Shown piece by piece: positions 820-36,415 of a DNA stretch of 42,943 nt. Source of the DNA: Nemertoderma westbladi (lineage: Eukaryota > Animalia > Xenacoelomorpha); the NCBI GenBank assembly GCA_032718475.1, contig JAUCBJ010002541.1, positions 1 to 42,943 on the forward strand, in the 5' to 3' direction. The notes beneath the pieces are model-generated. The model saw nothing but the letters and a program-made list of their open reading frames with translations. It was not told where the DNA came from and made no database searches. Both the position numbers and the translations under genes were made by a program. Numbering within the stretch: position 1 is the stretch's first letter; each line of letters starts with the position of its first letter.

Positions 820-1094
820 TGCTACTATAATTGGCCTGCTGCATTGAAACTGCATATTGAGATGCTATGCCAGCTTAACAAAAATATTTTGTATTTAGTA
901 TGCAGTCAACAATTGGCAAGCCCAATGCAGCATGCATTAAGAATGATATGCAGGCTTATCATCAAAGTTGTACCACCACAACTCCCTATCCCTCAAAACT
1001 TTCGCGAGATTATCCGCATCTTCAAGACCAGTGTCCTTTTGGAGGCATCTCACGAAAGTCATGGGCTGTCCACCATTATTTCCTCTATGGACCT
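820..1094 (-). mobile_element. Old, diverged 3' fragment of an RTE-like LINE (left half, split by the LTR element)
   Basis: Reverse complement aligns by eye with the 3' end of the RTE copy at about 37730-37927 (e.g. ccgcatcttcaagaccagtgtcc, aaagtcatgggctgtccacca); the match resumes after 12991. Confidence 0.8.
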
Positions 1095-2819
1095 TGTTGC
1101 CATTATCCCAACACCAGGGGGGAAAAACGCCGATGCTGGAGACGTGACTTTACAGACCACCGAGCCCCGGCCAGTCACCGGATATTGATTGTGGAGAAGG
1201 AATGTTTTCTGAGATGCAAGTTTGCGGTTGATAAAAAGCTGCATTAGTTGGATATACTCTTTAATGTAACTTCCTATAGTTGAAACCTGTTCAACATCAT
1301 TGAAACCTGAAACCTGATTAAGAATAATTTTGGGCTTCCCCAAATCAATATACACCAAATATTCACAATAATTATACACGATAATATAAATCCCTACGGT
1401 ATATTATTTAATTACCCACTGTTCGCTTCAGATTTTAGCCTACCTAATGTTCCCCAGATTTTCCCTCGGTCCTAGTCTTAGTGCCGTAGTGTCGGTGTCG
1501 GTCGACCCTGTCGCGTGTCCATTCCACCCCTCACGAACCCCGAAGGGTTCGATCATTGAGAACCAGAACGGCTTGGCTAGGGGTCCGTCGGTTCATCGCA
1601 GAAACCCAACCACCTAGGCTTTCCGAGTCCCTTTCAGGCTCGTAGTCGCTTCGGCAGCCGAGAAACTGCTCCGAACAGTCGGTAGGCCAGTAGAGTCTAG
1701 TCCTTTGTCTTTCGACCCCGTCGCGTGTCCGTTCCACCCCTCACGAACCCCGAAGGGAACGATCATCGAGAACCAGTACGGCTTGGCTAAGGGGTCTGTC
1801 GTCGGTTCCCGTCGCAGATCCCGGTACAAGCAGTCAGCGTTCCGAGTTCTTTTCAGTCTCGTAATAGCTGCCGTTGACCAGAGACCGCTAAGGGCAGTCC
1901 TCGTCAAACCCATCCTGTGGCCAGCCCTTTCGCATGTCCGTCCCACCCCTCGCGAACCCCGAAGGGATCGGTCATCGAGAACCAGTACGGCTTAGCTCAG
2001 GGGGCAGTCGTTAGTTGGCCACCCGTTCGCGTGTCCGCTCCACCCCTCACGAACCCCGAAGGGTTCGATCATCGAGAACCAGAATGGCTTGGCTACTAAG
2101 GGGCCGTCGTTTCCCGTCGCAAATCCCTGACACAAGCAGTCAGCGTTCCGAGTTCTTTTCAGTCTCGTAATAACTGCCGTTGACCAGAGACCGCTAAGGG
2201 CAGTCCTCGTCAAACCCGTCCTGTGGCCAGTCCTTTCGCATGTCCGTCCCACCCCTCGCGAACCCCGAAGGGATCGGTCATCGAGAACCAGTACGGCTTA
2301 GCTCAGGGGGCAGTCGTTAGTTGGCCACCCGTTCGCGTGTCCGCTCCACCCCTCACGAACCCCGAAGGGTTCGATCATCGAGAACCAGAACGGCTTGGCT
2401 ACTAAGGGGCCGTCGTTTCCCGTCGCAGATCCCTGACACAAGCAGTCAGCGTTCCGAGTTCTTTTCAGTCTCGTAATAACTGCTGTTGGCCAGGGACCGC
2501 TAAGGGCAGTCCTTGTCCTTTAGGCCTGGCGCATTACCAAATCCACCCCTACAGGCAGCAGGAAGTTGGCCAGGGCCTAATAGTACTCAGGCTAACCTGA
2601 ATACTGCTTGCATTTTCCATCCCCCCCTGGCCCTTATAACTATGAAATTATTCCCGTACCCTGTAAGTTCCCCCAAAGTTCGCCCATAAATCGCCCCCAG
2701 TTTATTGAATGTGCCCAAAACCCATGGTCCCGCACCCAGTAGTAATATCGGAATAATCAATTTTAATAAAATACAAAAATATTCAACTCGCGTTATGGAA
2801 AGTTGAAATACCGCGAACA
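1095..2819 (-). repeat. 3' LTR (1725 bp)
   Basis: Starts tgttgcc and ends ccgcgaaca; matches 11264..12986 except about 10 substitutions and one 2-bp indel; preceded on the minus strand by the PPT. Confidence 0.96.
1503..2520 (-). ncRNA. Tandem array of structured RNA motifs in LTR U3: 6 K-turn/UUCG hairpins and 4 loop-E/GAAA hairpins, partly in a 306-bp higher-order repeat
   Basis: Motif B cores at about 1524, 1734, 1943, 2040, 2249 and 2346 read on the minus strand UUCUC-GAU-GA-Y-CGAACCC-UUCG-GGGUUCG-Y-GA-GGGG. Motif A at 1621, 1837, 2143 and 2449 reads UA-CGAG-nCU-GAAA-nGnA-CUCG-GAA, mostly inside long stems. The repeat is seen directly; RNA function is inferred from tetraloops and covariation. 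Confidence 0.7.
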
Positions 2820-2828
2820 GTCCCCCCC
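2820..2828 (-). other. Polypurine tract (PPT)
   Basis: Minus strand reads GGGGGGGAC directly before the TGTT start of the 3' LTR. Confidence 0.8.
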
Positions 2829-3211
2829 AATGACCTTCGTGAAGTCTGTCGGTCGATTGAGTTTGCGTAGGTCATTCCCAATATAAAAAACCCAAATTTA
2901 ATATTGCATAGTTTTAATTAATTTGGCCTAGAGTTTGTATAAAAATAAATGTTCGATAAATGTTCCTGGAATATCCCGATCCACTATTTCTTTCTCTGAT
3001 ACGCCTTTCGTCTCTTCGCCCGTCGACTCTCATCGATCGCTATAGCTGGTAGAGGAGCGTCCACATCCATCGTGAGTAGCGCTTCGGCTTGTCTCCTGGC
3101 GGCTCTTCCTTTCGATGGCATAGGGATCATGTCGGTTCGTCTTTCCAACTCAGACTTGCGTGCCTCTAGGAACCACTCTCCGTCACCGAACTCCTCTTTA
3201 TACGAGTATAA

Positions 3212-5584
3212 TCATCTAATGACTTCAAATGGACCGAATAATCCGGCGCTCAGTAGCAGATCCACGTAATGGAAAGGTAGCGTGGCCGACGTGTGGAGGC
3301 GTTCCGGGAAGGAGAAATACCCGCACGCCATCTCCTGCGCGATATTCCGAGCGTTTCTCCGAACCTTGGTCTTTAAGTGGCTGTTTGCGTATGTTTCAAA
3401 CATGACCATATTTCCCATAGTGGTTACGTCCTTGGTTGGACATTTGATATAGCAGCGGGGGCTAGAGGAATGTCCACGGAAACCGCACGTGGTGCAGAGG
3501 TTATAAAGGATCGGACAGACGGAAACGTCGTGGCCCGATGTCGCGCAGTATGGGCAATAGAGTATCCCGAGGAGCTGGAGGCATGAATCGGTAACCCGAT
3601 TCCTTCTGCCGCGTGGGCACTGCTCCGAACCACAGTCGCCGCATACCTCCAACTGCATCTCTCGACCAGGAAATATTGGAATCGGGACGCCGATGTGATA
3701 CTCGAGTCGTCGGTCGCTCTTCGGAATATTCGCGGTGGTCGGTAGCCCGCGGAATGCTAGGCTTTTGCGTAGTAGGTTCTCGCTCCGATAACCTTCTTTG
3801 TGTCCCGCTGGTCTCAATTCGGACGACCATTTCTGGCGGTGGATCCATTCAGTTTGCTCGGCGTACCAACGGGTTAGTCGCATAGGGTCCTGAGGAACGG
3901 CGGGTGTAGTAGCCACCGCTGGTCGGCGAAGGGGTGCCGGGGTTTTAGACGGAGGGATACCGAGGAGATCGTCGGGTGTCGGCGCATCGCTGGGGCCCTC
4001 CTCGACCAGTATCGCTGAGCGGGTCCGTTGGTGGCTGGTACTCGGAATCTCCGACGACCAATCTTCGCCACCCGGGAAAGGATACGGGGATAACCGTTGG
4101 CATATGTCGCCGAAGTCGCTCAATGCAGCTGTAGTGGCTACCTCCCTCGCGGGGCTACCGGAGCCGCGTGGGGTGTAAACGCCTGCTCTCTTCATCGGTT
4201 CGGCCGAGGCAACCCGTTTGGCGGCCGGTCCATACGCGGCCTCCGGCTCGAGTTGTCGCTTTGGGGTGGAGAGTAGAACACCCTCGTTTAGCCATATCTC
4301 TTCCCCTTCCGAAGAGATCAGAGGCTCCTCCGCACCGAGAAGTTCGGTAATTGTAGGGATGTCGTAAGGCCCGCTCTCGTCCCAGGAATCGATAACGGCG
4401 AGCGTTTTAGTCTCTCCCGGTGCGATGTTCTCGACCGCTTTGAACGCGTGGTGTATGACCTCGTTCCAGTCGTAGTCGACAAAGGAAAGCGGGATCGCCG
4501 TAATAAGGTTATCGAGAGTTTTACAGATAAACTTAGCGACGGTGTAGCATTCCATAACGACGTAAACGTAGTTCCGTCGATCGGGATTCTCCCACCTTTG
4601 GTGTATCGTCCATTTCCGATCAACGTCCTTCCATCGACCCTCTCGCTCGCTCTTTATTTCTAATCCCGGGTATCCACCATATATTTTATTATAGTCCCGG
4701 AATTTCTGGGGTTTGAAGTCGATACCGCCGTTTAGCACAGCGAGGTAGCCGATCCCGGATTTCGTCGGTCTCACCTCTTGGAATCCTCGCATGAACTCGG
4801 CGAATCGTAACCAGGCTAGTAGCGTTTGAGTGTCGATGCAATGGCTAAGGGCGTTGAGGTCGTCTCGTCGGTTTCTTCCTGCAGGGGCGTTCGCGTAGTC
4901 GTTCCGGACGTCCGCCTTGATATCTGACCCGATTTTAATGACGTCGAAGTCGAAGAGGATCTTTTGGATTTCCGGAGGCAGCAACCAGATCGCTCCGGCT
5001 GCCTGCACTTCCTGTCTGGGTGTCGGGAATATTCGGCACACCAGTACCAAACCGTCCAGGGTTCCGAGGACGACGACTAAGGATCGACCGTATTCTTTCT
5101 CCCCGTACTTTTCCTGGTAGTCGTCTCGGTTCTGGATAATCGATACGCGTTCCTCTCGAAGCGTCGCCGTACACTCCGACAGGTTTCCCCAGTGGGCGAG
5201 GTACGTACTCTTGTCGTCGACGAAACTTTGACATCTCGCCAACGTAATCGCTTTCGAGGTGGGCATCGCGTTTCCCTCGTTGTCGTAGATCAAACATCGG
5301 GATCTGTAGACGCTCTGCCGGAACGTTTCCCAAAACGACGAATCGTCCCCTCCGGTTGCCTTTGCGTTCCGAGTTCTTTTCAGTCTCGTACTAGCATCGG
5401 CTAACCGGAGGGCTCGTAGATTCTTAGAATCCGGTCCCTCTCGCCCGGTGAATTTAATGACTCGCACGTTCTCATTTAGCAGGGTGCTCCAATTTGTATC
5501 AAAGTCAGGGGATCCGGGTTGCGAATATTCCAGTAGATCTATCGTGCTACGTAATTCGCCGATAATTTGGCGATTTGGGTCCAT
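3212..5584 (-). CDS. 790-aa accessory ORF: N-terminal DEDDy (WRN/EXD/Mut-7/Egalitarian-like) 3'-5' exonuclease-fold domain, Pro-rich linker, C-terminal Cys/His Zn-knuckle cluster
   Basis: Uninterrupted ORF, same sense as gag. Exo I-like LIYD101NE103G; LPPEIQKILFDFDVIKIGSDIKAD225 (WRN-type LPxxLxxLLxxxxIxKVGxxIxxD); CIDTQ; SGIGYLA; Exo III-like W..P....Y341VVME345CY. C-terminal CGDC, CPYCATSGHDVSVC, CTTCGFRGHSSSPRC. The ORF is near certain; the domain call is by eye. Confidence 0.75.
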   Translation of the reverse strand: MDPNRQIIGELRSTIDLLEYSQPGSPDFDTNWSTLLNENVRVIKFTGREGPDSKNLRALRLADASTRLKRTRNAKATGGDDSSFWETFRQSVYRSRCLIYDNEGNAMPTSKAITLARCQSFVDDKSTYLAHWGNLSECTATLREERVSIIQNRDDYQEKYGEKEYGRSLVVVLGTLDGLVLVCRIFPTPRQEVQAAGAIWLLPPEIQKILFDFDVIKIGSDIKADVRNDYANAPAGRNRRDDLNALSHCIDTQTLLAWLRFAEFMRGFQEVRPTKSGIGYLAVLNGGIDFKPQKFRDYNKIYGGYPGLEIKSEREGRWKDVDRKWTIHQRWENPDRRNYVYVVMECYTVAKFICKTLDNLITAIPLSFVDYDWNEVIHHAFKAVENIAPGETKTLAVIDSWDESGPYDIPTITELLGAEEPLISSEGEEIWLNEGVLLSTPKRQLEPEAAYGPAAKRVASAEPMKRAGVYTPRGSGSPAREVATTAALSDFGDICQRLSPYPFPGGEDWSSEIPSTSHQRTRSAILVEEGPSDAPTPDDLLGIPPSKTPAPLRRPAVATTPAVPQDPMRLTRWYAEQTEWIHRQKWSSELRPAGHKEGYRSENLLRKSLAFRGLPTTANIPKSDRRLEYHIGVPIPIFPGREMQLEVCGDCGSEQCPRGRRNRVTDSCLQLLGILYCPYCATSGHDVSVCPILYNLCTTCGFRGHSSSPRCYIKCPTKDVTTMGNMVMFETYANSHLKTKVRRNARNIAQEMACGYFSFPERLHTSATLPFHYVDLLLSAGLFGPFEVIR

Positions 5585-6154
5585 ATTTACGATTATATCC
5601 GTTACAAATTAGATCAGTTAATTATAAGTCCAGAAAGTCTGAAACTATAGCGATAGCAGAATAATTCAGTTTTTTTTATTTAATTCAGTTTATTAAATAA
5701 TATTGCTATATAGACATCTATCATCTTATTGCTAATACTTTCAGCATTTACAGTTACTATAGCTATACATTAATATCCAACCAGTTTTTTATGACTTTTT
5801 TGTCCTTTTCTTTTTTCCAATTCTTTTCTTTAGACTTTTTTTTACCTTTTTTTTTGTCTTTTTTCATTTCATTATTATTTCATCTCATTTCATTTATTTC
5901 CACATATATTTCAACACATTTAGTTCCACCATTTATTTCATATTTATTTATTTCCACATCATCATTGGGTTTATAGCCCCCCGGCTATCATCATTTGTTA
6001 TAAGCGCAGCACCAGGGTGCGCATCATTATATTTTCATCAGCATACGCGTCATCATTCAGGTTTATAGTAGAGTTGTCTGATCCTTTTCATCGTTTCCAA
6101 CTATATTCAATCATTTTCTTTGGTTAATCTTTGTCGTGGAAGGGGTGTTACTCG

Positions 6155-6556
6155 GCAATCTGGGATCTACAGCTGGACTCGTTACACCGCCTACGCCCCA
6201 AACTGCGCACGTAACGTACAATGAAGACGCTGGGAGTGAAGTCACGTGGATGCACCATGGACCCACCAGAATAACACTCCCAACAACATAAAGCTCAGTC
6301 GACGAAGTCATGTGGGATGGGATTACGCAACATTCTGGGATCTACAGCTGGACTCGTTACACCGCCTACGCCCCAAAATCCACGCAACGGTCCCACCAGA
6401 ATAACGCGACTGAGACACAAAACCCTCTATCGTCGAAGTCATGTGGATGCACCATGGACCCACCAGAATAACGGGATAGAAGGGGAGTTGCGCGGCAATC
6501 CGGGATCTACAGCTGGACTCGTTACACCGCCTATGCCCCGAACTGCGCACGCAACG
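6155..6556 (-). repeat. Intergenic repeats: three copies of a ~60-nt pseudoknot-forming unit and two to three copies of a 38-nt bulged hairpin
   Basis: gggatctacagctggactcgttacaccgccta(c/t)gcccc lies within 6155-6216, 6332-6389 and 6495-6556; gaagtca(c/t)gtggatgcaccatggacccaccagaataac at 6238-6275 and 6435-6472, with a split copy at about 6304-6405. Confidence 0.85.
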
Positions 6557-6834
6557 GACAACATAACATACTGCAATGAATACAATGAATTCCACTTCAA
6601 ATCTTTTCCATTTCCAATAATCCAATATCGTAGGTCCTGATGACCAAAATCAGGGTAAACAAAACATAAACGACCCTGCATCAGTCGAAACATCTGCAGG
6701 GTGACGCTGGACTCCACATAACACACGAGGAAACACAAATACCATGGCGTGGTTACAGTTGGTTTAAGGGGGGTCCATAATTCGTTGTCGATAAATCACA
6801 GTTAAAAAGAGTTTGTCAACATGATGAGAAGGGT

Positions 6835-7310
6835 TTAAACGTATTTGTAATTGTCACCAATGTCCGCAGCAGGATCTTGAGTAGGGAACTTATCACCTCT
6901 CGTAGAGTCACCGCTATCATTGCCTTCAAGAAGGCACAGCCTCTGGATAGGGCGTTGGTAGTGGCCCGATTTCGTTCGTATCGTCACAGTCCTCGCAAGT
7001 CCGTCTTTGCTTGGGTGTATGGTCACGACCCGCGCCACAGGCCAGTGAACGCGGTCTTTGAGATCTTCTTTAACTAGTACCATGTCGCCAACTGCGACGT
7101 TCCGGTAGGTGTTGTTCCATTTCCTACTGGTCCGGAGGGTTATGAGGTACTCCTGGGCCCAGATTCTCCACCAATGCGCTGCCAACGCTTGGGCCTTCTT
7201 CCAGTTTGTATGTCTCGCGATCTCGTTGGGATCCGGGAACATGGTCTCCGGGAGAACGTGGGTTTTGGGTCTCCCCAGTAGGTGGTTAGGAGTGAGGGAC
7301 TCAACTGAGG
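6835..7310 (-). pseudogene. Bel/Pao integrase C-terminal remnant (DUF5641-like)
   Basis: LTPNHLLGRP...WKKAQALAAHWWRIWAQEYL...VGDMVLVKE...WPVARV...SKDGLARTVTIRT....YQRPIQRLCLLE; no DDE core upstream; out of frame with gag-PR. Confidence 0.9.
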
Positions 7311-7327
7311 CGTTCGCCATCCGGGTA

Positions 7328-10300
7328 TTACGGCAGATTAGTCCGTGCTCTCCCATTAATGGTGTCAATGTTATCAACATCATTATTATCATCAACAACC
7401 TTATTAGCCACCAAAGCATGGGCACGCGCCAATGTCGGGTCTTTGAACGTGGCCTGAACAAAAATGTTGGTACAATATTGATCTTCCTCGGACGGATTCT
7501 CGTCCTTCTCGGCAAACTCTCGGGTCTCCACATTAAAGCATCCGGTCATCTCCCGCTGGGTTCTCTCGGTTTCGAGAAATAAATCCTCATTGAGGTCTGT
7601 AGCTGAGCAATATCCCACGGATGTTACATTTTCTTTATTCTGACATTTAGGAAGATATGTATAGGTGTCAGTAGTTTCTTCCTTGATGCCGCAGAGGGTC
7701 CATCCCATTATGGTTCGTTCAGCGTAAAAGCCGTCATCTTTCTTTATGGATCGGGCGACATCTCCGGTAGGTATGTGTAATTCCGGTGTATCAAGTCCGA
7801 TCAGTAGGGTGATGCGGTTTACGTCCAACTGCGGACACCTCAGATCTACATCGTCTCGGTCCAATTGTATGAGGGGGGTGTACTCGGCTGATTGTCGGAA
7901 CCGCACTCGGAGGTCTGTGTGTACCAAGGCGTTCTTGATGGTTAGCTTGACCGTCTCGTAGCCCTTCATTACTCCTTCCATTTGGAGTTGCACCTCCCCA
8001 GACTCTACCTCTCTGTTATCGGTGATGGTTTGTATGGGCCGTTTACAAGGTTCATATTCTAGGCCGAGTTGCTCGAGGAAATCCCGGTCGATGATGGTTC
8101 CGTCAGACCCGTTATCAAGGAACGCGAGCGTCGTCAGGGATTTGCCGACTCCCTGAATCCTTACCGGGATTACCTTTGCGAAGACCATGTAGCGGCGATT
8201 TATAAGATTAATCGTGGCTGAAATGTTGGTTACTTGTGGTTTATCGGTGGAGATTTTAAACGGATTGGTTTCTCTCCGTTGGGTAATCCGGGTTCCTTTG
8301 GAAACGTGGTTCGTTTCTCCTCTTCGCTTGGCTTCGATCCGAAAGGGGAGGGTAGTGAAGTCGAAGTTCGCGGGGATGTGGAGGAGCGTGTGATGACGTA
8401 GGTCGTTACAAACTGCACAACACGACCTTTGGTCGCAATCCCGAACGTAGTGACCTGTTCCAAGACACCGGAAGCATCCTCGGTGTTTCATCATCGCCTC
8501 GAAGCGTGGGACAAGTTCAGCAAACTGGAACTTTCCGCAGAATTCCAACTTATGTTTCTCTCCGCAGAAGAGACATATAGGGGAGGCTGTGGTGCCTTCC
8601 CTTTCGGGTGCCCAATTCGCTAGGTAGCATGCCCATTCTTCTGCTAAGGTCGGTTCCTCGTAATCCTCGTCATCCGAGTCCTCAGCCATACTGATGGCCA
8701 TCGCACTCACAGGAGTAGGGTGGAATCTTGGGTTTGGAGTGGGTGCCCTGCTCTGATAATTGCTCTCCATTGCGTCCAACTTGGCGAGACTCTGTTTCGA
8801 GAACATCGAGTCATTCATGGCTTCGGAGATATCGTCCAGGAATGCCGACATTTCGAGGAAGCTGGGATCTCGATCTGGATGTCTGTGCCGGAGATCTACG
8901 CATTTATAGGCCCACTTACTTTGCAGCCATCCGGGGAACTTCCGGGCAATCTGTCGGAGGTTTAGAATGTTGTTCACCTGGTCCTCCTTATTTAAGGGTT
9001 TCAGAGTGTAGTAGGCATCCTTCATGGAATCTGAAAATTCCTGGAGGTTCTGTGGGTCCCCTAGTGATCCCGCGTCTTGTATCAGTTTCTCTAGAGTTTT
9101 ATTAATTATAGTCCCGGTATTTCCGTATCTTTTGTCTAGAGTTTTCCATGCGTCGTAGTATGCTTCATGAGAACCTCCCTCAAAACAAGCGATGATTCGG
9201 CGTGGTTTGTCACCCAGGTATTGCGATAAATATACCAGTTTCTGTGCATCGGCTATGTCCGTTGATCCAATCTGCGCAAAGAACCGTTTCTTGAATCTGA
9301 GGTAATCGACGGGATCTCCTTCGAAGGTGCGGATCTCCATCTTGGGCATGGAGAGGCGGTTTTCCAATGCCCGGATAATGCCGATGTTGTCCGAACTGGA
9401 GTGGTTTGGAGGGTTATAGTTATTGGCACTCTCTCCCATACTCGATGGATCAATGGTAGGTGGAGTTTTAATGATGACGCGACTACGGGTTTGTGGTGTG
9501 GATGTAAACGGGTTGTTGGATCGAGGAGTGGCGTCCCGTTCCGAGTCCCTTTCAGGCTCGTACTTGGGAACACTCGCTGTCGTGGTGTTGGATGGGAAAT
9601 AAGGTTCCTCATTCTTTAGCGTAGCCGGTGGTGGATGGAACACCGGTGCTTGTGCCGATAGCGTAGACTGTTTGGTAGGCGGGATCTCGGGTTTCGGAAG
9701 TTTCGCCGCTGTCGGTATGAATGACTTTTCTAATTCCGGTACCGGGATTGGTTCATATTCCTGATCTATATCCCTTTCCCAGTCCTCGTAGAGTTGAATA
9801 TCTCGTTCTATAAGTGCGGCTTCGTATTCCGCGAGTTTTACAATATCCGCATTCTTTTTGTGGATGAGAATTGCTTGGGCCTCGGCGTGTTGTTTACGCA
9901 TTTCTGCTTCCCATTTACGTTGTTCGATCTCTCGTCCGCGTTGTTCGGCCTCCTGTTTGCGTTGTTCGGCCTCTCGTTTGCGTTGTTCGGCCTGCCGTTC
10001 GTCCTCTCGTCTATGTTGTTCGGCCTCTCGTTTATGTTGTTCTGCCTGCCGTTCGTCCTCTCGTTTGCGTTGTTCGGCCTGCCGTTCGTCCTCTCGTCTA
10101 TGTTGTTCGGCCTCTCGTCTATGTTGTTCGGCCTCCTGTTCGCGTTGTTCGGCCTGTCGTTCGGCTGCTTGTTTGGCCTCTCGCTTTTGTGTTTCGGCGG
10201 CTAATACATCTTGCTCGGCTTGCAGTTGAATATACTCATCTTCCATCCGAGCTTTGAGGGCTAATGCCTTCCGTTCTCGCAGTTGGTCTCGGAGTGGCGG

Positions 10301-10825
10301 CGCCCCTTGAGAACTGCGCGCTGAGCCGGATATCTCGCTCCTAGCGCTGGAGTGCTGATTTCTAGCGGACCCCGTTCTCTTTCGATGTACTGCTGTCCTG
10401 ATGCTGGAGGATCGTACTGATTCCGCGTCTGTTCTTTCAGCCCTCTTGTAATACTGTTCTTCATAGCCTCTCACAAGGCTGAGGGTCCTCCGGTGTTGTT
10501 TGCGGAACCCATCTAGATGTACAACGTGTTCTTCCAACTTGGGGTAGTTTTCCTGATCGGTGGGGGGAACGAGCTCTTGGTACGCCTGTATCATTCTTTC
10601 GTACCGCTGTAGGATATTTCGGATACTTTGAAGCTGAGTTTGTACCTCATTGAGGGGGGTTTTGACTCCCTTGAGTTGTTTCTCCATCCGTTGATACGCT
10701 CGGGTTACTCCGCCTTTGAGAGCCCCTAGCCGACGGGTCATGTTCTTGACGTTCGGTACCTCGTCGGCTTCCGAGTCTGTGTGGTGATCCATCTCGTCGA
10801 TATCGGATACGTTATTTGTCGTCAT
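7328..10825 (-). CDS. gag: Bel/Pao Gag-protease polyprotein (1165 aa), truncated before RT
   Basis: Coiled-coil N-terminus; DUF1759-like capsid region (FEGDPVDYLRFKKRF...KLVYLSQYL...AWKTLDKRYG); knuckles CLFCGEKHKLEFC, CFRCLGTGHYVRDC, CAVCNDLRHHTLLH; protease AFLDNGSDGTII...LLIGLD...TIMGWTLCG. Confidence 0.95.
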   Translation of the reverse strand: MTTNNVSDIDEMDHHTDSEADEVPNVKNMTRRLGALKGGVTRAYQRMEKQLKGVKTPLNEVQTQLQSIRNILQRYERMIQAYQELVPPTDQENYPKLEEHVVHLDGFRKQHRRTLSLVRGYEEQYYKRAERTDAESVRSSSIRTAVHRKRTGSARNQHSSARSEISGSARSSQGAPPLRDQLRERKALALKARMEDEYIQLQAEQDVLAAETQKREAKQAAERQAEQREQEAEQHRREAEQHRREDERQAEQRKREDERQAEQHKREAEQHRREDERQAEQRKREAEQRKQEAEQRGREIEQRKWEAEMRKQHAEAQAILIHKKNADIVKLAEYEAALIERDIQLYEDWERDIDQEYEPIPVPELEKSFIPTAAKLPKPEIPPTKQSTLSAQAPVFHPPPATLKNEEPYFPSNTTTASVPKYEPERDSERDATPRSNNPFTSTPQTRSRVIIKTPPTIDPSSMGESANNYNPPNHSSSDNIGIIRALENRLSMPKMEIRTFEGDPVDYLRFKKRFFAQIGSTDIADAQKLVYLSQYLGDKPRRIIACFEGGSHEAYYDAWKTLDKRYGNTGTIINKTLEKLIQDAGSLGDPQNLQEFSDSMKDAYYTLKPLNKEDQVNNILNLRQIARKFPGWLQSKWAYKCVDLRHRHPDRDPSFLEMSAFLDDISEAMNDSMFSKQSLAKLDAMESNYQSRAPTPNPRFHPTPVSAMAISMAEDSDDEDYEEPTLAEEWACYLANWAPEREGTTASPICLFCGEKHKLEFCGKFQFAELVPRFEAMMKHRGCFRCLGTGHYVRDCDQRSCCAVCNDLRHHTLLHIPANFDFTTLPFRIEAKRRGETNHVSKGTRITQRRETNPFKISTDKPQVTNISATINLINRRYMVFAKVIPVRIQGVGKSLTTLAFLDNGSDGTIIDRDFLEQLGLEYEPCKRPIQTITDNREVESGEVQLQMEGVMKGYETVKLTIKNALVHTDLRVRFRQSAEYTPLIQLDRDDVDLRCPQLDVNRITLLIGLDTPELHIPTGDVARSIKKDDGFYAERTIMGWTLCGIKEETTDTYTYLPKCQNKENVTSVGYCSATDLNEDLFLETERTQREMTGCFNVETREFAEKDENPSEEDQYCTNIFVQATFKDPTLARAHALVANKVVDDNNDVDNIDTINGRARTNLP
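9935..10165 (-). repeat. Coding tandem repeat in gag (REAEQHR/REDERQAEQRK units) extending the coiled coil
   Basis: Repeated tgttcggcct...tcgt units of 21 and 33 bp, all in frame. Confidence 0.9.
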
Positions 10826-11013
10826 TGTAACGCCTCGTCAATAGCTAGATACGCGATGTCATAAAACAGTTCCTCGTAGGTATTGTACTCAGCTTGGACC
10901 ACCCGAACGGTAATCCTGAATCGTCCGACGTTCGTTCCTTGCACTTCAACTTCGACGTGCCAGATTCCTGGCTCAACTTGGATTATATCAATGGGTGTGA
11001 TCGATACTTCCAT
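10822..11013 (-). CDS. 63-aa upstream ORF whose stop overlaps the gag start (ATGA)
   Basis: True ATG in strong context (GGAATGG); its TGA overlaps the gag ATG; the sequence alternates hydrophobic residues like beta strands and ends in an acidic helix-like segment. No homolog recognised. Confidence 0.45.
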   Translation of the reverse strand: MEVSITPIDIIQVEPGIWHVEVEVQGTNVGRFRITVRVVQAEYNTYEELFYDIAYLAIDEALQ

Positions 11014-11205
11014 TCCCTGTTAACAACTCTCCAAATATGTGATCTGCCGACTACGAGTTGGTTAGATCGAGTTTGTTGATTAATTAAACCACGACTTCGT
11101 CTCAACTCAAATACCAGAGTTTCCTCGTAGTGGGTGCTGGCAAGCACGTAGAGAGTTTTGAAGAGTATTGAAGGATTCTGAACTTCCACCAGTTGAAGTT
11201 GACCG

Positions 11206-11263
11206 TAATTATTCTTAATTTTGACACCCTGTCAAAATTAACCGCATTAATTATTCTTAATTT
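11206..11263 (-). other. PBS position: no tRNA-type TGG; 18-bp direct repeat, 12-bp-stem hairpin and a 13-mer complementary to the LTR
   Basis: taattattcttaattttg at 11206-11223 and 11248-11265; ttaattttgaca-ccc-tgtcaaaattaa at 11215-11241; 11249-11261 is the reverse complement of LTR 11486-11498. Confidence 0.55.
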
Positions 11264-12986
11264 TGTTGCCGTTATCCCAACACCAGGGGGGAAAAACGCC
11301 GATGCTGGAGACGTGACTTTACAGACCACCGAGCCCCGGCCAGTCACCGGATATTGATTGTGGAGAAGGAATGTTTTCTGAGATGCAAGTTTGCAGTTGA
11401 TAAAAAGCTGCATTAGTTGGATATACTCTTTAATGTAACTTCCTATAGTTGAAACCTGTTCAACATCATTGAAACCTGAAACCTGATTAAGAATAATTTT
11501 GGGCTTCCCCAAATCAATATACACCAAATATTCACAATAATTATACACGATAATATAAATCCCTACGGTATATTATTTAATTACCCACTGTTCGCTTCAG
11601 ATTTTAGCCTACCTAATGTTCCCCAGATTTTCCCTCGGTCCTAGTCTTAGTGCCGTAGTGTCGGTGTCGGTCGACCCTGTCGCGTGTCCGTTCCACCCCT
11701 CACGAACCCCGAAGGGTTCGATCATCGAGAACCAGAACGGCTTGGCTAGGGGTCCGTCGGTTCATCGCAGAAACCCAACCACCTAGGCTTTCCGAGTCCC
11801 TTTCAGGCTCGTAGTCGCTTCGGCAGCCGAGAAACTGCTCCGAACAGTCGGTAGGCCAGTAGAGTCTAGTCCTTTGTCTTTCGACCCCGTCGCGTGTCCG
11901 TTCCACCCCTCACGAACCCCGAAGGGAACGATCATCGAGAACCAGTACGGCTTGGCTAAGGGGTCTGTCGTCGGTTCCCGTCGCAGATCCCGGTACAAGC
12001 AGTCAGCGTTCCGAGTTCTTTTCAGTCTCGTAATAGCTGCTGTTGACCAGAGACCGCTAAGGGCAGTCCTCGTCAAACCCGTCCTGTGGCCAGCCCTTTC
12101 GCATGTCCGTCCCACCCCTCGCGAACCCCGAAGGGATCGGTCATCGAGAACCAGTACGGCTTAGCTCAGGGGGCAGTCGTTAGTTGGCCACCCGTTCGCG
12201 TGTCCGCTCCACCCCTCACGAACCCCGAAGGGTTCGATCATCGAGAACCAGAACGGCTTGGCTACTAAGGGGCCGTCGTTTCCCGTCGCAAATCCCTGAC
12301 ACAAGCAGTCAGCGTTCCGAGTTCTTTTCAGTCTCGTAATAACTGCCGTTGACCAGAGACCGCTAAGGGCAGTCCTCGTCAAACCCGTCCTGTGGCCAGC
12401 CCTTTCGCATGTCCGTCCCACCCCTCGCGAACCCCGAAGGGATCGGTCATCGAGAACCAGTACGGCTTAGCTCAGGGGGAAGTCGTTAGTTGGCCACCCG
12501 TTCGCGTGTCCGCTCCACCCCTCACGAACCCCGAAGGGTTCGATCATCGAGAACAAGAACGGCTTGGCTACTAAGGGGCCGTCGTTTCCCGTCGCAGATC
12601 CCTGACACAAGCAGTCAGTTCCGAGTTCTTTTCAGTCTCGTAATAACTGCTGTTGGCCAGGGACCGCTAAGGGCAGTCCTTGTCCTTTAGGCCTGGCGCA
12701 TTACCAAATCCACCCCTACAGGCAGCAGGAAGTTGGCCAGGGCCTAATAGTACTCAGGCTAACCTGAATACTGCTTGCATTTTCCATCCCCCCCTGGCCC
12801 TTATAACTATGAAATTATTCCCGTACCCTGTAAGTTCCCCCAAAGTTCGCCCATAAATCGCCCCCAGTTTATTGAATGTGCCCAAAACCCATGGTCCCGC
12901 ACCCAGTAGTAATATCGGAATAATCAATTTTAATAAAATACAAAAATATTCAACTCGCGTTATGGAAAGTTGAAATACCGCGAACA
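11264..12986 (-). repeat. 5' LTR (1723 bp), containing the same motif array (about 11672..12688)
   Basis: Direct repeat of 1095..2819; followed on the plus strand by TSD GACCT. Confidence 0.96.
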
Positions 12987-13060
12987 GACCTGCCAAAGAA
13001 CAAGAATGTGCACAGGATGGTCCTCACGGTGAAAACAATGACCGGCAAAGCGGAGGCTGA
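12987..13060 (-). mobile_element. Right half of the old RTE-like fragment split by the LTR element
   Basis: gccaaagaacaagaatgtgcacaggatggtcctcacggtgaaaacaatgaccggcaaagcggaggc aligns to the reverse complement of about 37665-37732. Confidence 0.8.
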
Positions 13061-13868: not shown

Positions 13869-14128
13869 CTACTAGGATCGGCATGCTACATTGCAGCTGC
13901 ATTTTTAAGAATGATGTGCCGGCTTGTTGACAAAATTGCGTCGCCACAACTCTATCACCCAAGACATTTGCTAGATCATCCGCATCTTCAAGGCCAGTGT
14001 CCTTTAAGATGCGTCTCAATAAAGTCAAGGGCTGTCCACCATGCTTATTCATTCCGGCATGAGGCTGCTAAAGTACAAGATTATGCATTGGCTGGTCCTC
14101 ACGGCGAAAGCAATGTCCTGCAAAGCGG
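13869..14128 (-). mobile_element. 5'-truncated RTE-like LINE copy (about 260 bp)
   Basis: Close reverse-complement match to 37670-37927; flanked by aaaatttaatta at 13857-13868 and 14129-14140 (TSD). Confidence 0.9.
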
Positions 14129-15824
14129 AAAATTTAATTAATAAATCCTTGAGAGTCAAATATTATAAGTATCAAATTTGTTTTTGTTTTCTTTAGAGCC
14201 AATGTAATATCATAAGTATACATCGGTATATGAGAGCTGAGTTTAAGGATGACTCTGGTTCCAAGATCACCTGCTATGAAGCTCAAGAAACTCAAGGTTG
14301 CGAAGGAAAATGTACATCTTTCAAGGGGCCCATATTCAAGTATAAAAACATGGATATGTCACTCCGACAGGTTAGGCTTGCTTTTAATGGGTGGTATGCT
14401 TGAAGTATGAAATTGTAGAAAATTGTAAATTATTTTTATGATTAAAAACACTTAGCAATTTTATATTAAGTTTCATATTCACTAACATTGCACATTCGCA
14501 TAAATGAATATTCTCACTTGAGTCCAGGTGAAACGCGGTGCTACATTATTTATATAGAATACAATAGAGTCAATATTTAGGTAATTATTTTTCAAACTCG
14601 TTTTTTGTTATTTACACTGCGTTATTTTCACTTTGTAAACACCCAGGCCTACGATAAATGATGCTGATATCCGGACAATTATTCTGAAATAATTATATAA
14701 TTTATAGGAATGTTATTATTGTAAAGAAATCCAAACGAAACCAAAGAGGTTAATGTTCACTAACTGTCTTGACATGGATAACAACGCAGTAACAGGACCA
14801 TTTTCAACCGTCATTCATGAAGCATCAAAATGTGGTTGTAAACATTGCATTGGGAAGTAAACGCTTTACTGAATATTTTACTTACTTTTTCAAGTTGCAC
14901 ATATCTGAACTAAACTAAATACAGTAACTACAATTGTACACCTAAGCTTACACTAATATTAGAAGTTATTATAAGAAGGTAATAATATATTAAACAATTT
15001 TCGCTCCCTTTTGTTTCTGATATTACCGAGAGTGATGTAATAAAGTTAGGCATGTTTCAATTTTCGACCTCTCAAAATATCGCCCACTTTTGAAAGCTAT
15101 CCCGCTCCACACTACATTCTTCGCCAAATAGTAGGACACAGAGGGAGGTATGGAAGTTATGCTGGATTTGCAACCTCTTACGGCACTCATACATACACCT
15201 GATCCAACCGGTTGTTTTCACTAACTACGCTCCCACTCAAATGTGTAGGTGATTAATTATATAGTTCTTGGAACGAGCCGAAAATAATGCCTATATTATA
15301 TCCTGTAAAATAAATAATTATTATTCACTTTAGCCTTTAATCACACAAGCAATCAAATATACAACAAACAAGTTGGTGAAATGTTTGTATGCAGTAAGTC
15401 AGTCAGTTAGTTAGGCGTACCCTTATTTCTACTATGTTTAAATCATGTGTTCAGCAATAAGAGCCATTATGTGTGCAATGTGAGTTTATTAAAAACTTCA
15501 AATTAGCTTGTAAAATATTAATGACACATAATTTGTTATTTAATATTTCATCAATTAGTATACATTAACGTTAGTGTCTTTGATTGACCTCCCACTCATT
15601 CGGATCTGTGTCCATCAACTTATCAATCTAATGTATATATATATATACATTCATACATACACCATAATATGTACTTCTCGTGAGGTGGTGGTTGTTCCCT
15701 ATAATGGTATTTAATGGTCAATAATAATCCTACTACACTTACTACTAGGTCGAGCGAGCACAGTCATCATATTTTATTATGATGTCCATATTTTATATAT
15801 AAACCATTTCTTGGAGCAACTCCT

Positions 15825-15880
15825 ACAAGCGTCTTCTCGGTCGTCTGCCATCAATGGCAGACGACCGAGAAGACGCTTGT
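15825..15880. repeat. Perfect inverted repeat, 27-bp arms, 2-nt spacer
   Basis: acaagcgtcttctcggtcgtctgccat-ca-atggcagacgaccgagaagacgcttgt. Confidence 0.95.
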
Positions 15881-16096
15881 CGGATAACTTGCTACCGGTA
15901 CATAAGCAGTTGTATTTGGATTCAGCTGCCGCCCTTGCATTTCTCGCATCATAGCAGCATCCTCATACCGTTCTGACCTAATGTCTACAGTGTTTTAAAT
16001 GGGTCATGGTTCTATACACAATTCCAGCTGTAATCGGGGCTCCTTTACTAAGTGTTGCTGTAAGTGTCAACTTATGCAGGGGATTAGTTCGTTAGT

Positions 16097-16813
16097 CAGA
16101 AAGACCAAAATTTTGACAGTTAACTTTGAAAGTCCTCAGCAAGTCTCTGATCGGAGGAACATAAGCTCAAAATATGGTATGCTTGAGCATGTGGATGACT
16201 TCTGTTACCTGGGATCATGGATCCGGAAGTCAGGTGAGGACCTTCGAATACGTAATAATAGGGAAAGGCATGGGCAGCCTTGAATAGGCTTTCCAGGATT
16301 TGGAAGTCACCGGTAATTTATCCGACACTTAAGGTCCGATTATTTAGAGCAGCAGTAGTTCCAGTACTCCTCTATGGGAGTCCATGCTGGGCTCTAACTG
16401 CTGAGGACACCAAATCTCTGGATGGCACATTCACAAGAATGCTACGCCGGGTTCATTGTGTCAAGTACAATGCACACATCTCCAACCAGACACTATATAA
16501 CATTGGAGGTGTCTCATTGGTTCCCCCAAGCTTGACACTAGAACAAAATCGCCTCCGCTTTGCAGGACATTGCTTTCGCCGTGAGGACCAGCCAGTGCAT
16601 AATCTTGTACTTTGGCAGCCTCATGGAGTGAATAAGCATGGTGGACAGCCCATGACTTTCTTGAGACGCATCTTAAAGGACACTGGCCTTGAAGATGCTG
16701 ATGATCTAGCAAATGTCATGGGTGATAGGGAGTTGTGGCGGTGCAATTTTGTCGATAAGCCGGCACAGCATTCTTAAAAATGCAGCTGTAATGCAGCATG
16801 CCGATCCTAGTAG
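16097..16813 (+). mobile_element. 5'-truncated RTE-like LINE copy (RT C-terminal region, frameshifted)
   Basis: Near-identical to about 37219-37927; (TAG)n tail; TSD tagttcgttagt at 16085-16096 and 16814-16825. Confidence 0.92.
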
Positions 16814-17090: not shown

Positions 17091-18364
17091 CCCTATTACC
17101 ACTGGGGGGGGGGGGGGGGGGGGGGGGTGGGGCGAATCGGCCCCTTCCTAGTTTTTAGTTGCTGTAACTATACAACCACATTACGTACCGGCCCAACTTT
17201 TATTGAGAATTAGCCAAATTTAATGCCGCATCTTTTGCAAAAAACGACGTTGCAATTGGATTTCTACTTTTCGATGTGGGTGCCACCTCAAAATTTGGTC
17301 TCCAGCACCAAATTTTTTGAAATTTTCGAATTTTACAAAGTCATTCGTGATTTAGTAATTATTTATGTTTGGGCTATTTTTATTTATTTTTATTGGTTTG
17401 GATCACTCTAATGTTCTATACAAGTATGTAAGTGTAGTGGTACGTCATTTTTGGAGAACCAAAATTAGGGTGTGGCACTGCTTTAAAATTTCAAAATTAC
17501 TTTATTCGGAAAATTTACTAAAGTTTTGATTTCGAAGCATTTTTATTGGCTTTCTGGAGCGCTGAATCGATTGAAAGTGATATAGAAGCCTGAAGACTTA
17601 GTGGTTCGCCATTTTTGGTGCACCAAAATTAGGGCGTGGCACTTCAAATTTTGAAAAATACGAGATTCGGAAAATACACTAAAGTTTTGATTTGCAAAGC
17701 ATTTTTATAGGTTTTCTGGAGCGCTGAATCGATTGAAAGTAATATAGAAGCCTGAAGACTTAGTGGTTCGCCATTTTTGGCGCACCAAAATTAGGGCGTG
17801 GCACTTCAAATTTTGAAAAATTAGAGATTCGGAAAATACACTAAAGTTTGGATTTCAAAGCATTTTTATAGGTTTTCTGGAGCGCTGAATCGATTGAAAG
17901 TAATATAGCAGCCTGAAAACTTAGTGGCTCGCCATTTTTGGTGCACCAAAAATAGGGCGTGGCACGTCAAATTTTGAAAAATGCGAGATTCGGAAAATAC
18001 ACTAAAGTTTTGATTTCAAAGCATTTTTATAGGTTTTCTGGAGCGCTGAATCGATTGAAAGTAATATAGAAGCCACAAATCCTTGGTGTACGTAATTTTC
18101 GGTGCACCAAAATTAGGGTGTGGCACTTCAAATTTTCAAAATTACTTTATTCGGAAAAAACACTAAAGTTTTGATTTCAAAAAATGGCTAACCTCTAAGT
18201 CTTCAGGCTTCTATATTACTTTCAATCGATTCAGCGGTCTAGAAAACATATATAAATATGCGTTAAAATTTTAATTTTGGTTTATTTTCCGAATCTCGTA
18301 TTTTTCAAAATTTGAAGTTTCCCCCCCCCCCCCTGATGGTCAAAACATCCCAGTGGTAATAGGG
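17091..18364. mobile_element. piggyBac-like non-autonomous DNA transposon
   Basis: TTAA on both sides (17087-17090, 18365-18368); perfect 16-bp TIRs CCCTATTACCACTGGG / CCCAGTGGTAATAGGG; no transposase ORF. Confidence 0.9.
17440..18318. repeat. About 161-bp tandem repeat (about 4.5 copies) plus one inverted partial copy inside the piggyBac-like element
   Basis: ggg(c/t)gtggcac recurs at about 17468, 17632, 17794, 17955 and 18115; 18180-18318 is the reverse complement of the unit. Confidence 0.9.
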
Positions 18365-24301: not shown

Positions 24302-24319
24302 AGATGTAGTGTTAGCCGC

Positions 24320-30842: not shown

Positions 30843-31416
30843 TTAAAAAAGAAAGTATCAGATTCAAAGGATTTACAATTCGGGAGGTAGAAGTTTGAAG
30901 CACTAGCTCTGGTACTGTAAGAGTGTGTATCGCGTACTCTGTTGAATTGTTGTTTTAGGTAATAGGGACATTTACCATTATACACTTTATGCACATGGTT
31001 AAGGCGTAGCTGCTTAACTCTAATATCTAAGTTAAGTAGTCCAGATTCAGAAAAGTCATCTGGAGTTAGGTGGTGCCTAGGTTTGTAGTCTTTAATCAAT
31101 CATACTACTTTATTCTGAGCTACTTGTAATTTACATTTAAGCTGTTTGGTTAAGCCTTCATACCAAGAAGGGCACGCATAGTCCATGTGACACTGTATTA
31201 AAGAAGAGCAAAGTAACTTGCGAGAGTCAGTGTTTAAACTATTTTTATTTCTGTATAGAAACCTAAGTCTACTGTTAACTTTCGAGAAAATATTTTTCAC
31301 TGTGCTTTCTCCTGATAAGCAGTTATCCAATATGGCGCCTAAATATTTAACTTCCTTTTTATTTTCAATCTTATGTCCATTACTAGTGACTTCAAACTTA
31401 GTTACCTTCTTTAACT

Positions 31417-31608
31417 TTCTTTTGGAAACTAACAAAATACTTTCAGTCTTACCGTAGTGAATGGATAGCTTATTATCAACCAACAACTCATTACAGGATT
31501 CTAGAACTGCACTTCTTTTGGAAACTAACAAAATACTTTCAGTCTTACCGTAGTGAATGGATAGCTTATTATCAACCAACAACTCATTACAGGATTCTAG
31601 AACTGCAC
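31417..31608. repeat. Exact in-frame 96-bp tandem duplication in the LINE RT
   Basis: [32 protein letters not shown] occurs twice. Confidence 0.95.
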
Positions 31609-33982: not shown

Positions 33983-34009
33983 GGGTCCTGGGTTGGTCTC
34001 AATATCCCC
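33983..34009 (-). other. 2A-like ribosome-skipping motif (LLSLAGDIETNPGP)
   Basis: Minus strand ggg gat att gag acc aac cca gga ccc, in frame with the PHD and APE domains; not in the supplied ORF track. Confidence 0.9.
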
Positions 34010-36297: not shown

Positions 36298-36415
36298 ATT
36301 GAACACTTATCCGCATTCAACTATTTCTTACTATACACAATTCCGGGTGTAATCCAGGCTCCTTTACTAAGTGTTGCCAACAACAGTAAGCTGACATTGT
36401 AGTTAACTGTTCATT

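Follow-up and report, generated by a model that had tools for sequence, protein, structure and literature searches.

An RT-less Bel/Pao-derived LTR retrotransposon family with a predicted RNase D-type ORF3 and arrays of candidate RNA folds

The window, a stretch of DNA of 42,943 nucleotides, contains on its minus strand a copy of a Bel/Pao-derived LTR retrotransposon that spans positions 1095-12986. Its ends, priming elements and reading frames are as follows.

1090..1094 and 12987-12991, no strand: target-site duplication GACCT (5 bp), on both element flanks
11264..12986, minus: 5' LTR, 1723 nt, TG...CA ends
1095..2819, minus: 3' LTR, 1725 nt, TG...CA ends
2821..2828, minus: polypurine tract adjoining the 3' LTR
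11429..11434, minus: candidate poly(A) signal of R, an ATTAAA hexamer that is partly base-paired within a predicted hairpin
11249..11261, minus: primer-site position, 2 nt past the 5' LTR, perfect 13-nt complement of 11486-11498, without TGG
11486..11498, minus: candidate self-primer in the LTR (copy in the 3' LTR at 1317-1329)
10822..11013, minus: upstream ORF (uORF), 63 aa, its stop overlapping the gag start (AUGA)
7328..10825, minus: gag-protease ORF, 1165 aa, with DUF1759, two CCHC knuckles (zf-CCHC) and an LDNGS aspartyl protease motif
6835..7320, minus: 161-aa ORF corresponding to the Bel/Pao integrase C-terminal region (DUF5641), its ATG 7 nt past the gag-protease stop
5585..6130, minus: A-rich spacer containing 26 ATGs; a candidate splice acceptor (AG, 5640-5639) precedes the ORF3 start by 54 nt
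3212..5584, minus: ORF3, 790 aa, with an exonuclease fold at residues ~50-400, a low-complexity linker and Cys/His knuckles at ~635-780
2984..3211, minus: continuation of the ORF3 frame past the stop, 75 codons with a basic tail at the end

The element is a young copy, as an earlier note on this DNA had stated: the two 1.7-kb LTRs are 99.4% alike (1713 identities, 10 mismatches and one 2-nt indel), and empty insertion sites are present among the contigs of the DNA runs as joints from 1076 to 12990/12992. The TG...CA ends, polypurine tract and target duplication of a Bel/Pao-type LTR element were all found. The gag-protease frame was rightly called intact, being open throughout and closed by its own stop, and in the uORF the family differences listed are all synonymous (3/3). 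Searches by tblastn with 12 Bel/Pao-type proteins gave matches confined to gag-protease and the integrase C-terminal tail; no match to RT, RNase H or the integrase core was obtained in the element, and residues ~860-1810 of the full-length Bel/Pao proteins had no match at E<=0.001. The earlier claim that this core is missing thus stands, with the amendment that the C-terminal part of the integrase survives as the 161-aa ORF. Since gag and protease of Bel/Pao type are present and RT, RNase H and integrase core are missing, we filed the element as a non-autonomous Bel/Pao-derived family. The window also holds a second, decayed Bel/Pao element, which shares 23-33% protein likeness with the element described here and no DNA match.

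The family to which the element belongs is large, abundant and diverse. In each of three DNA runs from organism A (X1, X3 and X4, from three studies, one of which is possibly the source) all 30 bins of the element were covered, with 14,360 contig pieces of the family in X1 and 6,646 in X3, and the organism A DNA runs revealed 1,009 variable places along the element. The RT-less junction also occurs outside this copy, since a contig that is ~89% alike spans the gag-protease stop together with the beginning of DUF5641 (7267-7423). Run X5 (organism B; RNA by guess only) had low depth and 16 of the 30 bins covered, and was not taken as a sign of expression. The length of the motif array described below differs between copies (contig joints; X5 record 25). 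No helper element was found.

The site at which reverse transcription would be primed departs from the tRNA type. A published rule for self-priming is a stretch of at least 10 nt that is complementary to the LTR and located 0-5 nt past it (PMC6317226), and the element has 13 nt with a spacer of 2, the absence of a tRNA site being judged from the missing TGG alone. A complement of at least 13 nt to the primer site arose in only 2 of 20,000 shuffles, and an identical second copy of the primer-site 13-mer is located at 11207-11219. A stretch starting with TGG ~70 nt into the leader was set aside by eye as a tRNA site, being too far from the LTR. Among the family variants none reaches 4% in 11249-11263; the primer segment has a 5% variant at 11489, for which no partner change occurs among the variants listed for the primer site. 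An LTR subfamily whose primer segment is variant shows up as loose ends at 11498/11499. In folding, the self-priming duplex is lost when the RNA start is placed at or upstream of 11600. Its location upstream of the candidate poly(A) hexamer would place the self-primer 13-mer at both ends of the RNA.

ORF3 had been described in the earlier note as an intact 790-aa frame, and this we could not uphold: in three organism A runs all contig depth has another letter at the ORF3 stop (3212-3214), so the stop is private to this copy, ORF3 is not intact, and the family frame runs 75 codons further, to 2984. Upstream, the acceptor at 5640-5639 may serve ORF3. The exonuclease fold and zinc knuckles proposed for the protein, on the other hand, were recovered by structure searches and in the predicted fold. 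An Atlas structure search with ORF3 gave PF01612 clusters for 24 of 30 matches (best score 0.92; 50% of members carry the family), and the top matches among those listed by Foldseek in the PDB were DEDD nucleases or their relatives, with zero matches at E<=0.001. Comparison by VIA with diDNase, RICE1 and Nibbler yielded Z 10.7-10.2, rmsd 4.2-5.1 and 168-190 aligned (best case Z 10.7, rmsd 5.1, 184 aligned). The AlphaFold model itself is weak (mean pLDDT 41, from 10 sequences), and a single-sequence fold of the N-terminal half had pLDDT 36. The knuckles are akin to those of Lin28 and nucleocapsid; an Atlas search with the knuckle domain gave scores no higher than 0.85. Pfam has no family for ORF3 (one match, E 0.2) and returned weak matches for the ORF3 homologues, of which a HMMER search supplied eight, all distant. 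As queries in word-index searches for homologues, ORF3 and alignment A1 gave nothing, and single-protein scans identified no loci of homologues P0007 and P0008 among metagenome contigs and none for ORF3, P0001, P0003 and P0009 among viral contigs.

From these matches the N-terminal part of ORF3 is predicted to adopt a DnaQ-like fold of the DEDDy/RNase D type. The active-site residues D101, E103, D225 and Y341 are kept, E345 replaces the final D (DEDE), and an insertion of ~60 residues follows ExoI; these assignments come from a 7-sequence alignment, not from superposition. The ExoI D-x-E, ExoII D and ExoIII Y-x3-E align in four of the six homologues with an exonuclease domain. A reading of ORF3 as a catalytically dead nuclease was dropped once ExoI had been placed at residues 100-103. 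The earlier note had named neutral evolution of ORF3 as a result that would count against it; in a small and biased sample, 10 of 16 differences were synonymous against 29% expected (p=0.006), which favours purifying selection on ORF3.

Besides the reading frames, the element carries several families of repeated hairpins.

1500..2414, minus: motif A, six predicted K-turn hairpins in U3 of the 3' LTR (1500-1590, 1710-1800, 1919-2009, 2016-2108, 2225-2315, 2322-2414)
11669..12583, minus: motif A, six copies in the 5' LTR
1621-1644, 1840-1863, 2146-2169 and 2452-2475, minus: motif B cores in U3 of the 3' LTR
11790-12642, minus: motif B cores in the 5' LTR
5367..5390, minus: motif B core within ORF3 (codons 65-73)
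9539..9562, minus: motif B core within gag (codons 422-429; reading frame differs from that of the ORF3 copy)
6158..6534, minus: motif C, three copies (cores 6158-6194, 6333-6369, 6498-6534), a long stem with invariant internal loops
6228..6482, minus: motif E, three copies (6228-6285; 6292-6420, which encloses a motif C copy; 6418-6482)

In total there are 12 motif A K-turn hairpins, 10 motif B loop-E/GAAA hairpins and three copies each of motifs C and E, all as predicted folds. That repeated hairpins read on the sense strand was confirmed: this strand folds better than the antisense strand in nine of nine pairs, and stem-closed GNRA/UNCG loops in 1480-2620 number 14 on the sense strand against 0 on the antisense strand (the copies not being independent). 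Pseudoknots had been suggested as an alternative to hairpins; the hairpin families hold, and no pseudoknot was shown by the folding used, which is not pseudoknot-aware. Covariation, claimed for all, is clear for motif B, can be seen in the outer stems of motifs C and E, and fails for the Watson-Crick pairs of A, where a double-sided change occurs in 0 of 24 pairs, co-variation being found at non-canonical positions only and representing one event in one sub-lineage. For motif B, 96.7% of cells are paired, a value reached by 0 of 500 shuffles, with slid controls at 18-47%, and the copies in gag and ORF3 share one core with closing stems that differ in sequence yet still pair. In motif E one pair of internal loops recurs in all three copies, with three different closing stems, and motif C has an invariant 37-nt core inside variable stems.

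The K-turn array of the earlier note is sustained as a predicted motif, since a 3-nt bulge and tandem G.A between two helices occur in all 12 motif A copies, with U.U at 3b.3n in eight copies and C.C in four. The box C/D consensus is RUGAUGA/CUGA, in which the U.U of stem II is followed by G-C; motif A, which carries C-G there, departs from the box C/D snoRNP motif. Compared with the 11-nt GAAA tetraloop receptor (C1-G11, C2-G10, U3.A8, A4-A5 platform, G6.U7; numbering from PMC10243134 except for position 9), 8 of 11 positions agree in four copies and 6 of 11 in eight copies, in which receptor position U3 is C. Rfam, including its self-cleaving ribozymes, gave a best E of 1.7 with all scores far below gathering, covariance models of A and B were significant only at the 12 and 10 known copies and nowhere outside the element, and the motif B core has zero exact matches in viral contigs. 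From the sequence comparisons, both the RNA motifs and ORF3 look selected.

The explanation we favour, though only tentatively, is that of an RT-less Bel/Pao-derived family that is copied by a helper, primes itself and combines an RNA-fold platform with an RNA exonuclease, the two cooperating and not fitting as lock and key. The copying enzymes would be borrowed from a helper element and copying would be primed by the element's own RNA, while the repeated folds would form a protein-bound platform for packaging and export. K-turns are known ligands of L7Ae-family proteins (PMC4382518) and point to a host protein rather than to ORF3, so motif A may bind a host protein of the 15.5K/Snu13 type. 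Together with the loop-E/GAAA hairpins, the K-turns could compact the 3' end of the RNA, which would favour element RNA over helper RNA in export and particle assembly and would protect it from 3' decay, including decay by the element's own nuclease. ORF3, expressed from a spliced or internally started RNA, would be an active RNase D-type 3'-5' trimming enzyme acting on RNA 3' ends, its knuckles gripping single-stranded RNA, and would cooperate with the motifs without specific pairing. It seems likely that the predicted folds help the element RNA to be packaged and to survive. Retroviral packaging signals are usually close to the 5' end, however, and the location of the motifs mostly in U3 argues against a packaging role. 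A bolder version strikes us as rather improbable: the helper-dependent lineage would possess an entire RNA-control system, in which the active exonuclease with its zinc knuckles would read a self-marking motif in U3 and both ORFs, spare or mature the marked RNA (perhaps even producing the primer) and destroy unmarked competitor or silencing RNAs, while a six-fold K-turn/tetraloop-receptor array would shape the 3' end as a scaffold of riboswitch scale that co-opts host 15.5K.

ORF3 might instead bind one motif specifically, most plausibly B, as a Rev- or Egalitarian-like adaptor for export or transport or as a feedback regulator of its own RNA. The presence of motif B in ORF3, gag and U3, which would mark full-length and any subgenomic RNA, is in line with such a cognate pair, as are Egalitarian among the fold and profile matches, the basic tail of the family frame and the Lin28- and nucleocapsid-like knuckles. 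EXD1 and Maelstrom are dead nucleases (PMC5408684), whereas ORF3 and four of six homologues retain their acidic residues, and the host ligands of standard K-turns are already known, which makes the pairing unlikely in our view. We give about the same low credence to a counter-silencing role, in which ORF3 would act in trans to degrade or mis-trim small RNAs of the host or the precursors of these, while the folded array at the 3' end would label the RNA of the element itself as resistant. Nibbler, RICE1, EXD1 and RNase D are among the fold neighbours, the family is large and the copy young, and a trans-acting product would permit the recent insertion of a copy with a broken ORF3; the DEDD fold, however, spans many unrelated functions.

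Very unlikely, by our estimate, is that ORF3 makes the primer. The 3' RNA copy of the 13-mer, available because the 13-mer would occur at both RNA ends, would pair with the primer site and ORF3 would trim the tail back to the duplex, where 3' exonucleases for single strands halt; Tf1-type priming, however, needs no trimming enzyme. A role of the repeats as duplicated enhancers at the DNA level, or as mere passengers, with RNA folding as a by-product, has a slightly smaller chance still: tandem duplications are common in U3, the 306-nt unit is a near-exact, recent duplication and the array length varies between copies, but the strand bias (folding pairs and tetraloops alike), the pairing of closing stems that differ in sequence and the retention of motif B in two ORFs speak against it. 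It is also very unlikely that one of the motif families is a self-cleaving ribozyme of a kind not yet described, comparable to those of retrozymes and Penelope-like elements: motif C lies immediately before the ORF3 spacer, at a place where cleavage could release a subgenomic RNA, but Rfam returned no significant match, and cuts at B in the ORFs or at 12 U3 sites would ruin the genome RNA.

In this family a protein under apparent selection is found beside small, well-defined candidate RNA targets, which bears on what nuclease ORF3s do in LTR elements, a question standing since these were described in rotifers. If the motifs fold and bind protein as modelled, they would be cis-acting retroelement RNAs of a new class and may account for an RT-less family outcompeting its helper.

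The element shares with Bel/Pao elements (Belpaoviridae) the DUF1759 gag, CCHC knuckles, protease, DUF5641 tail, TG...CA LTRs and 5-bp duplication, with 21-28% and 24-39% identity to full-length relatives. It differs from them in the stop after the protease, the integrase tail as an ORF of its own, the lack of an RT/RNase H/integrase core, the uORF over the gag start, the 1.7-kb LTR with its motif array and the lack of a tRNA-type primer site. A literature search found no paper on a DEDD-nuclease ORF in Bel/Pao elements and none on arrays of K-turn/loop-E modules in an LTR. The Cer (Bel/Pao) elements of C. elegans reportedly have an exonuclease-like ORF, which the literature search did not confirm; if true, ORF3 would be less new still.

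In Tf1/sushi, plant Tcn1 and TAR lineages an LTR complement replaces the tRNA site, as in the element (PMC6317226); the element, whose transcript start and priming cleavage are putative, differs from these in being of Bel/Pao type. Motif A resembles the standard K-turns found in U4 snRNA and in box C/D RNAs, which are bound by 15.5K/L7Ae, in its 3-nt bulge ending in U, its tandem G.A and the U.U at 3b.3n in 8 of 12 copies (PMC4382518), and is unlike them in occurring six times per LTR, inside longer hairpins with further internal loops. The DEDDy fold is common to ORF3, Trypanosoma brucei RNase D (which, like ORF3, has a CCHC module), Nibbler, RICE1, EXD1 and Egalitarian (Foldseek, VIA; identity 9-19%), and such a shared fold shows no function. 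The earlier note knew of no Bel/Pao element with a DEDD nuclease ORF and a K-turn array; a lack of DEDD ORFs does not hold for LTR elements in general, since DEDDy exonuclease ORF3s are described in the bdelloid rotifer LTR elements Juno and Vesta and also in Athena/Terminon (PMC5408684). By that description the rotifer ORF3s are, like that of the element, RNase D-like and DEDDy, in env position, with one acidic D replaced by E and with no function assigned, and some have a Cys-His motif; no significant departure from neutrality is reported for them there. In contrast to the rotifer elements, the element is Bel/Pao-derived, lacks RT and carries RNA motif arrays, and its ORF, at 790-866 aa, has the knuckles in a domain of their own and ends in a basic tail. 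The RNA motif array is the new part of this family, DEDDy ORF3s having already been published for rotifer LTR elements.

The element, a Bel/Pao-derived LTR retrotransposon on the minus strand (1095-12986), has LTRs that end in TG...CA, GACCT on both flanks and a G-rich tract just 5' of the 3' LTR (sense); alignment of 12986-11264 with 2819-1095 gave 1713 identities, 10 mismatches and one 2-nt indel between the two LTRs. Its interior reads, in sense order:

Leader, minus strand: 250 nt, the first interior part
10822-11013, minus strand: uORF, 63 aa, stop overlapping the gag start (AUGA stop-start)
Gag-protease (gag-PR) ORF, minus strand: 1165 aa, with Pfam DUF1759 (E 8e-15), zf-CCHC and an aspartyl protease
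6835-7320, minus strand: stand-alone DUF5641 ORF, 161 aa, own ATG 7 nt past the gag-PR stop (DUF5641 E 5e-29)
Between the DUF5641 ORF and ORF3, minus strand: a structured spacer, then an A-rich spacer with 26 ATGs
5584-3212, minus strand: ORF3, the last ORF

Twelve Bel/Pao-type proteins, themselves found with gag-PR, matched only gag-PR and the integrase tail when used as queries; the element thus lacks RT, RNase H and the integrase core. The DUF5641 ORF is that tail (the C-terminal region of Bel/Pao integrase according to Pfam) and has been kept open; it may serve as a functional tether, or as a decoy for the helper integrase. The uORF has a weak match to DUF1883. In the A-rich spacer, 6036-6098 (minus strand) has a Box C-like / D' / C' / D layout with a weak Rfam match to sR3 (E 6.7), and two further ATGATGA motifs lie at 5994 and 5965; these may be additional K-turn/K-loop sites or the remnant of something snoRNA-like.

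There is no TGG after the 5' LTR. Instead, 13 nt at 11261-11249, behind a 2-nt spacer, can pair without a mismatch to 11498-11486 in the LTR and recur at 11219-11207; of 20,000 shuffles, 2 gave a complement of 13 nt or more. This layout fits the self-primer rule (at least 10 nt of LTR complement, 0-5 nt after the 5' LTR) as given in PMC6317226. The predicted duplex forms in folding for RNA starts at 11498-11545 (probability 0.4-0.9, summed over both sites); it does not form for starts at 11600 or beyond. The primer site carries no variant at or above 4%, with neighbouring positions variable, and the primer segment one 5% variant with no partner change among those listed.

The element also carries a set of repeated, predicted RNA folds. 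Motif B (a loop-E-like internal loop, a 4-bp stem that is the same in all copies and a tip capped by GAAA) occurs four times per LTR, once in gag and once in ORF3, the latter two in different frames. The helix that closes it varies in sequence among four contexts with the pairing kept: 96.7% of 60 cells pair, against 18-47% in slid controls and with none of 500 shuffles as high, in a test on six related sequences from which the structure itself was derived. Motifs C and E (6158-6534, three copies each) have invariant internal loops in different stems, one copy of C being nested inside one of E. Motif A is a UUCG-capped hairpin, six per LTR, with a standard K-turn in all 12 copies (3b.3n pair U.U in eight, C.C in four). 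The internal loop below the K-turn resembles the 11-nt GAAA receptor at 8 of 11 positions in four copies and at 6 of 11, with the core U changed, in the other eight; a UA/GA loop is also found below the K-turn. Among the 24 Watson-Crick pairs of motif A none had changed on both sides, and the non-canonical co-variation amounts to one event. Known binders of K-turns are proteins of the L7Ae family, 15.5K among them (PMC4382518), and the analysis therefore points to a host protein of this family as the partner of motif A.

For ORF3 (790 codons as read here) Pfam has no family, and HMMER against 1.84 billion representatives gave eight homologues (E 6e-14 to 7e-4), six with a similar N-terminal domain and all with the knuckle domain, in which an alignment of 10 sequences has 19 invariant columns. 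Among the Atlas matches (clusters with Pfam labels) of the N-terminal part, 24 of 30 were PF01612 clusters (best score 0.92, the family being assigned to 50% of members). Using an AlphaFold model that is weak (10-row alignment, mean pLDDT 41), the top PDB matches listed by Foldseek were DEDD nucleases or relatives, none at E<=0.001, and VIA listed diDNase, RICE1 and Nibbler among its top matches (Z 10.7-10.2). Alignment places the active site at D101/E103 (ExoI), D225 (ExoII) and Y341/E345 (ExoIII); as this pattern, with D or E last, is kept in four of the six homologues, the nuclease is probably active.

Contrary to the earlier note, ORF3 is not intact in this copy: the stop at 3212-3214 is private, a different letter standing there in all X1, X3 and X4 depth, and the frame beyond (X at the break) stays open for 75 further codons into a basic tail, so that ORF3 is truncated. 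Selection was assessed on a small, non-random sample, the 40 best-supported of 1,009 variable places (34 inside ORFs), with 29% silent expected; in this sample ORF3 had 10 silent differences, 5 replacements and 1 at the stop (p=0.006), the uORF 3/3 silent (p=0.024), gag-PR 6/13 (p=0.14) and the DUF5641 ORF 1/2. Together with the AUGA overlap, the silent uORF differences suggest termination-reinitiation.

The family was surveyed in public contigs of three DNA runs of organism A (X1, X3, X4) from three studies, one run perhaps being that from which the window came. Coverage of the element reached all 30 bins in each; 14,360 (X1) and 6,646 (X3) contig pieces aligned, a depth that is not a copy number, and the 1,009 positions varied at 10% or more. 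A 169-nt contig, about 89% alike, spans the gag-PR stop and the DUF5641 start, which makes the RT-less junction a feature common to diverged members; parts of ORF3 are covered by contigs 81-84% alike (X4). Beyond the contigs listed, pol-complete relatives may exist. Many empty-site joints in the runs show the element inserted into another repeat, and this host repeat, at 937-1076 and 12990-13054 around the insertion site, has a further copy at 13905-14129. Depth at 5848-7059 (DUF5641 and the motif C/E region) lies far above that of gag in X4, which hints that other families, perhaps a helper, share this region. Loose ends at 11498-11540 in all three runs mark a second LTR subfamily with the same U3 end and a variant primer segment, a natural test of self-priming.

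The window also holds a decayed second Bel/Pao element (20400-27000, minus strand; pol remnants, 23-33% protein identity) with no DNA or motifs in common with the element. Two copies of one non-LTR element (36407-37891 and 16097-16777, plus strand), which looks RTE-like by eye, are 96-98% alike, and one of them has an RT frame of 494 aa; a broken non-LTR element (31100-34045, minus strand), CR1/L2-like by eye, carries a 96-nt stretch duplicated exactly in tandem at 31417-31608. There are a 64-nt near-perfect palindrome (15821-15884; 31-nt arms, 97% complementary) and tandem arrays at 35794-36370 (unit 13 nt), 28547-29812 (about 146 nt) and 17399-18177 (about 161 nt).

Beyond anatomy and sequence pattern we infer, tentatively and at somewhat less than even odds, a helper-dependent family in which two layers cooperate. 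The element would make its own particle and need a helper; its RNA folds would form a scaffold, the motif A K-turns being bound by a host L7Ae-family protein such as 15.5K; and ORF3, translated from a subgenomic RNA (with a splice acceptor candidate at 5640-5639), would work with this scaffold as an RNase D-type trimming enzyme. Motif B, because it is present in both coding regions, is the best candidate target for an element-encoded protein. It is unlikely that ORF3 and a motif form a cognate pair; that ORF3 is a counter-silencing nuclease is equally doubtful. At the system level the earlier note's putative protein with cognate RNA is plausible. We give little credence to primer trimming by ORF3, and slightly less to the motifs being DNA-level repeats: folding was better for sense than antisense in 9/9 pairs, and the U3 has 14 stem-closed GNRA/UNCG loops in sense and 0 in antisense (rest of the window about 2 per kb and strand). 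A new ribozyme is very improbable; Rfam has no family for motifs A, B, C or E. The original observation was mostly right, with corrections to the intactness of ORF3 and to the pseudoknots, none of which was demonstrated.

A literature search by titles and abstract openings, with few subscription papers, turned up no paper that describes a DEDD ORF in Bel/Pao, Bel/Pao self-priming or K-turn arrays in LTRs, nor, by title, an RT-less Bel/Pao family. The extra ORFs of Bel/Pao named in the available part of PMC13524379 are env-like. DEDDy ORF3s are known from the bdelloid LTR elements Juno and Vesta and from Terminons (PMC5408684, where they have no assigned function), and PMC6338049 cites DEDDy ORF3 as a known accessory domain. 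What is unusual about the element is its set of RNA motifs, chiefly the K-turn array and motif B with its copies inside two reading frames.
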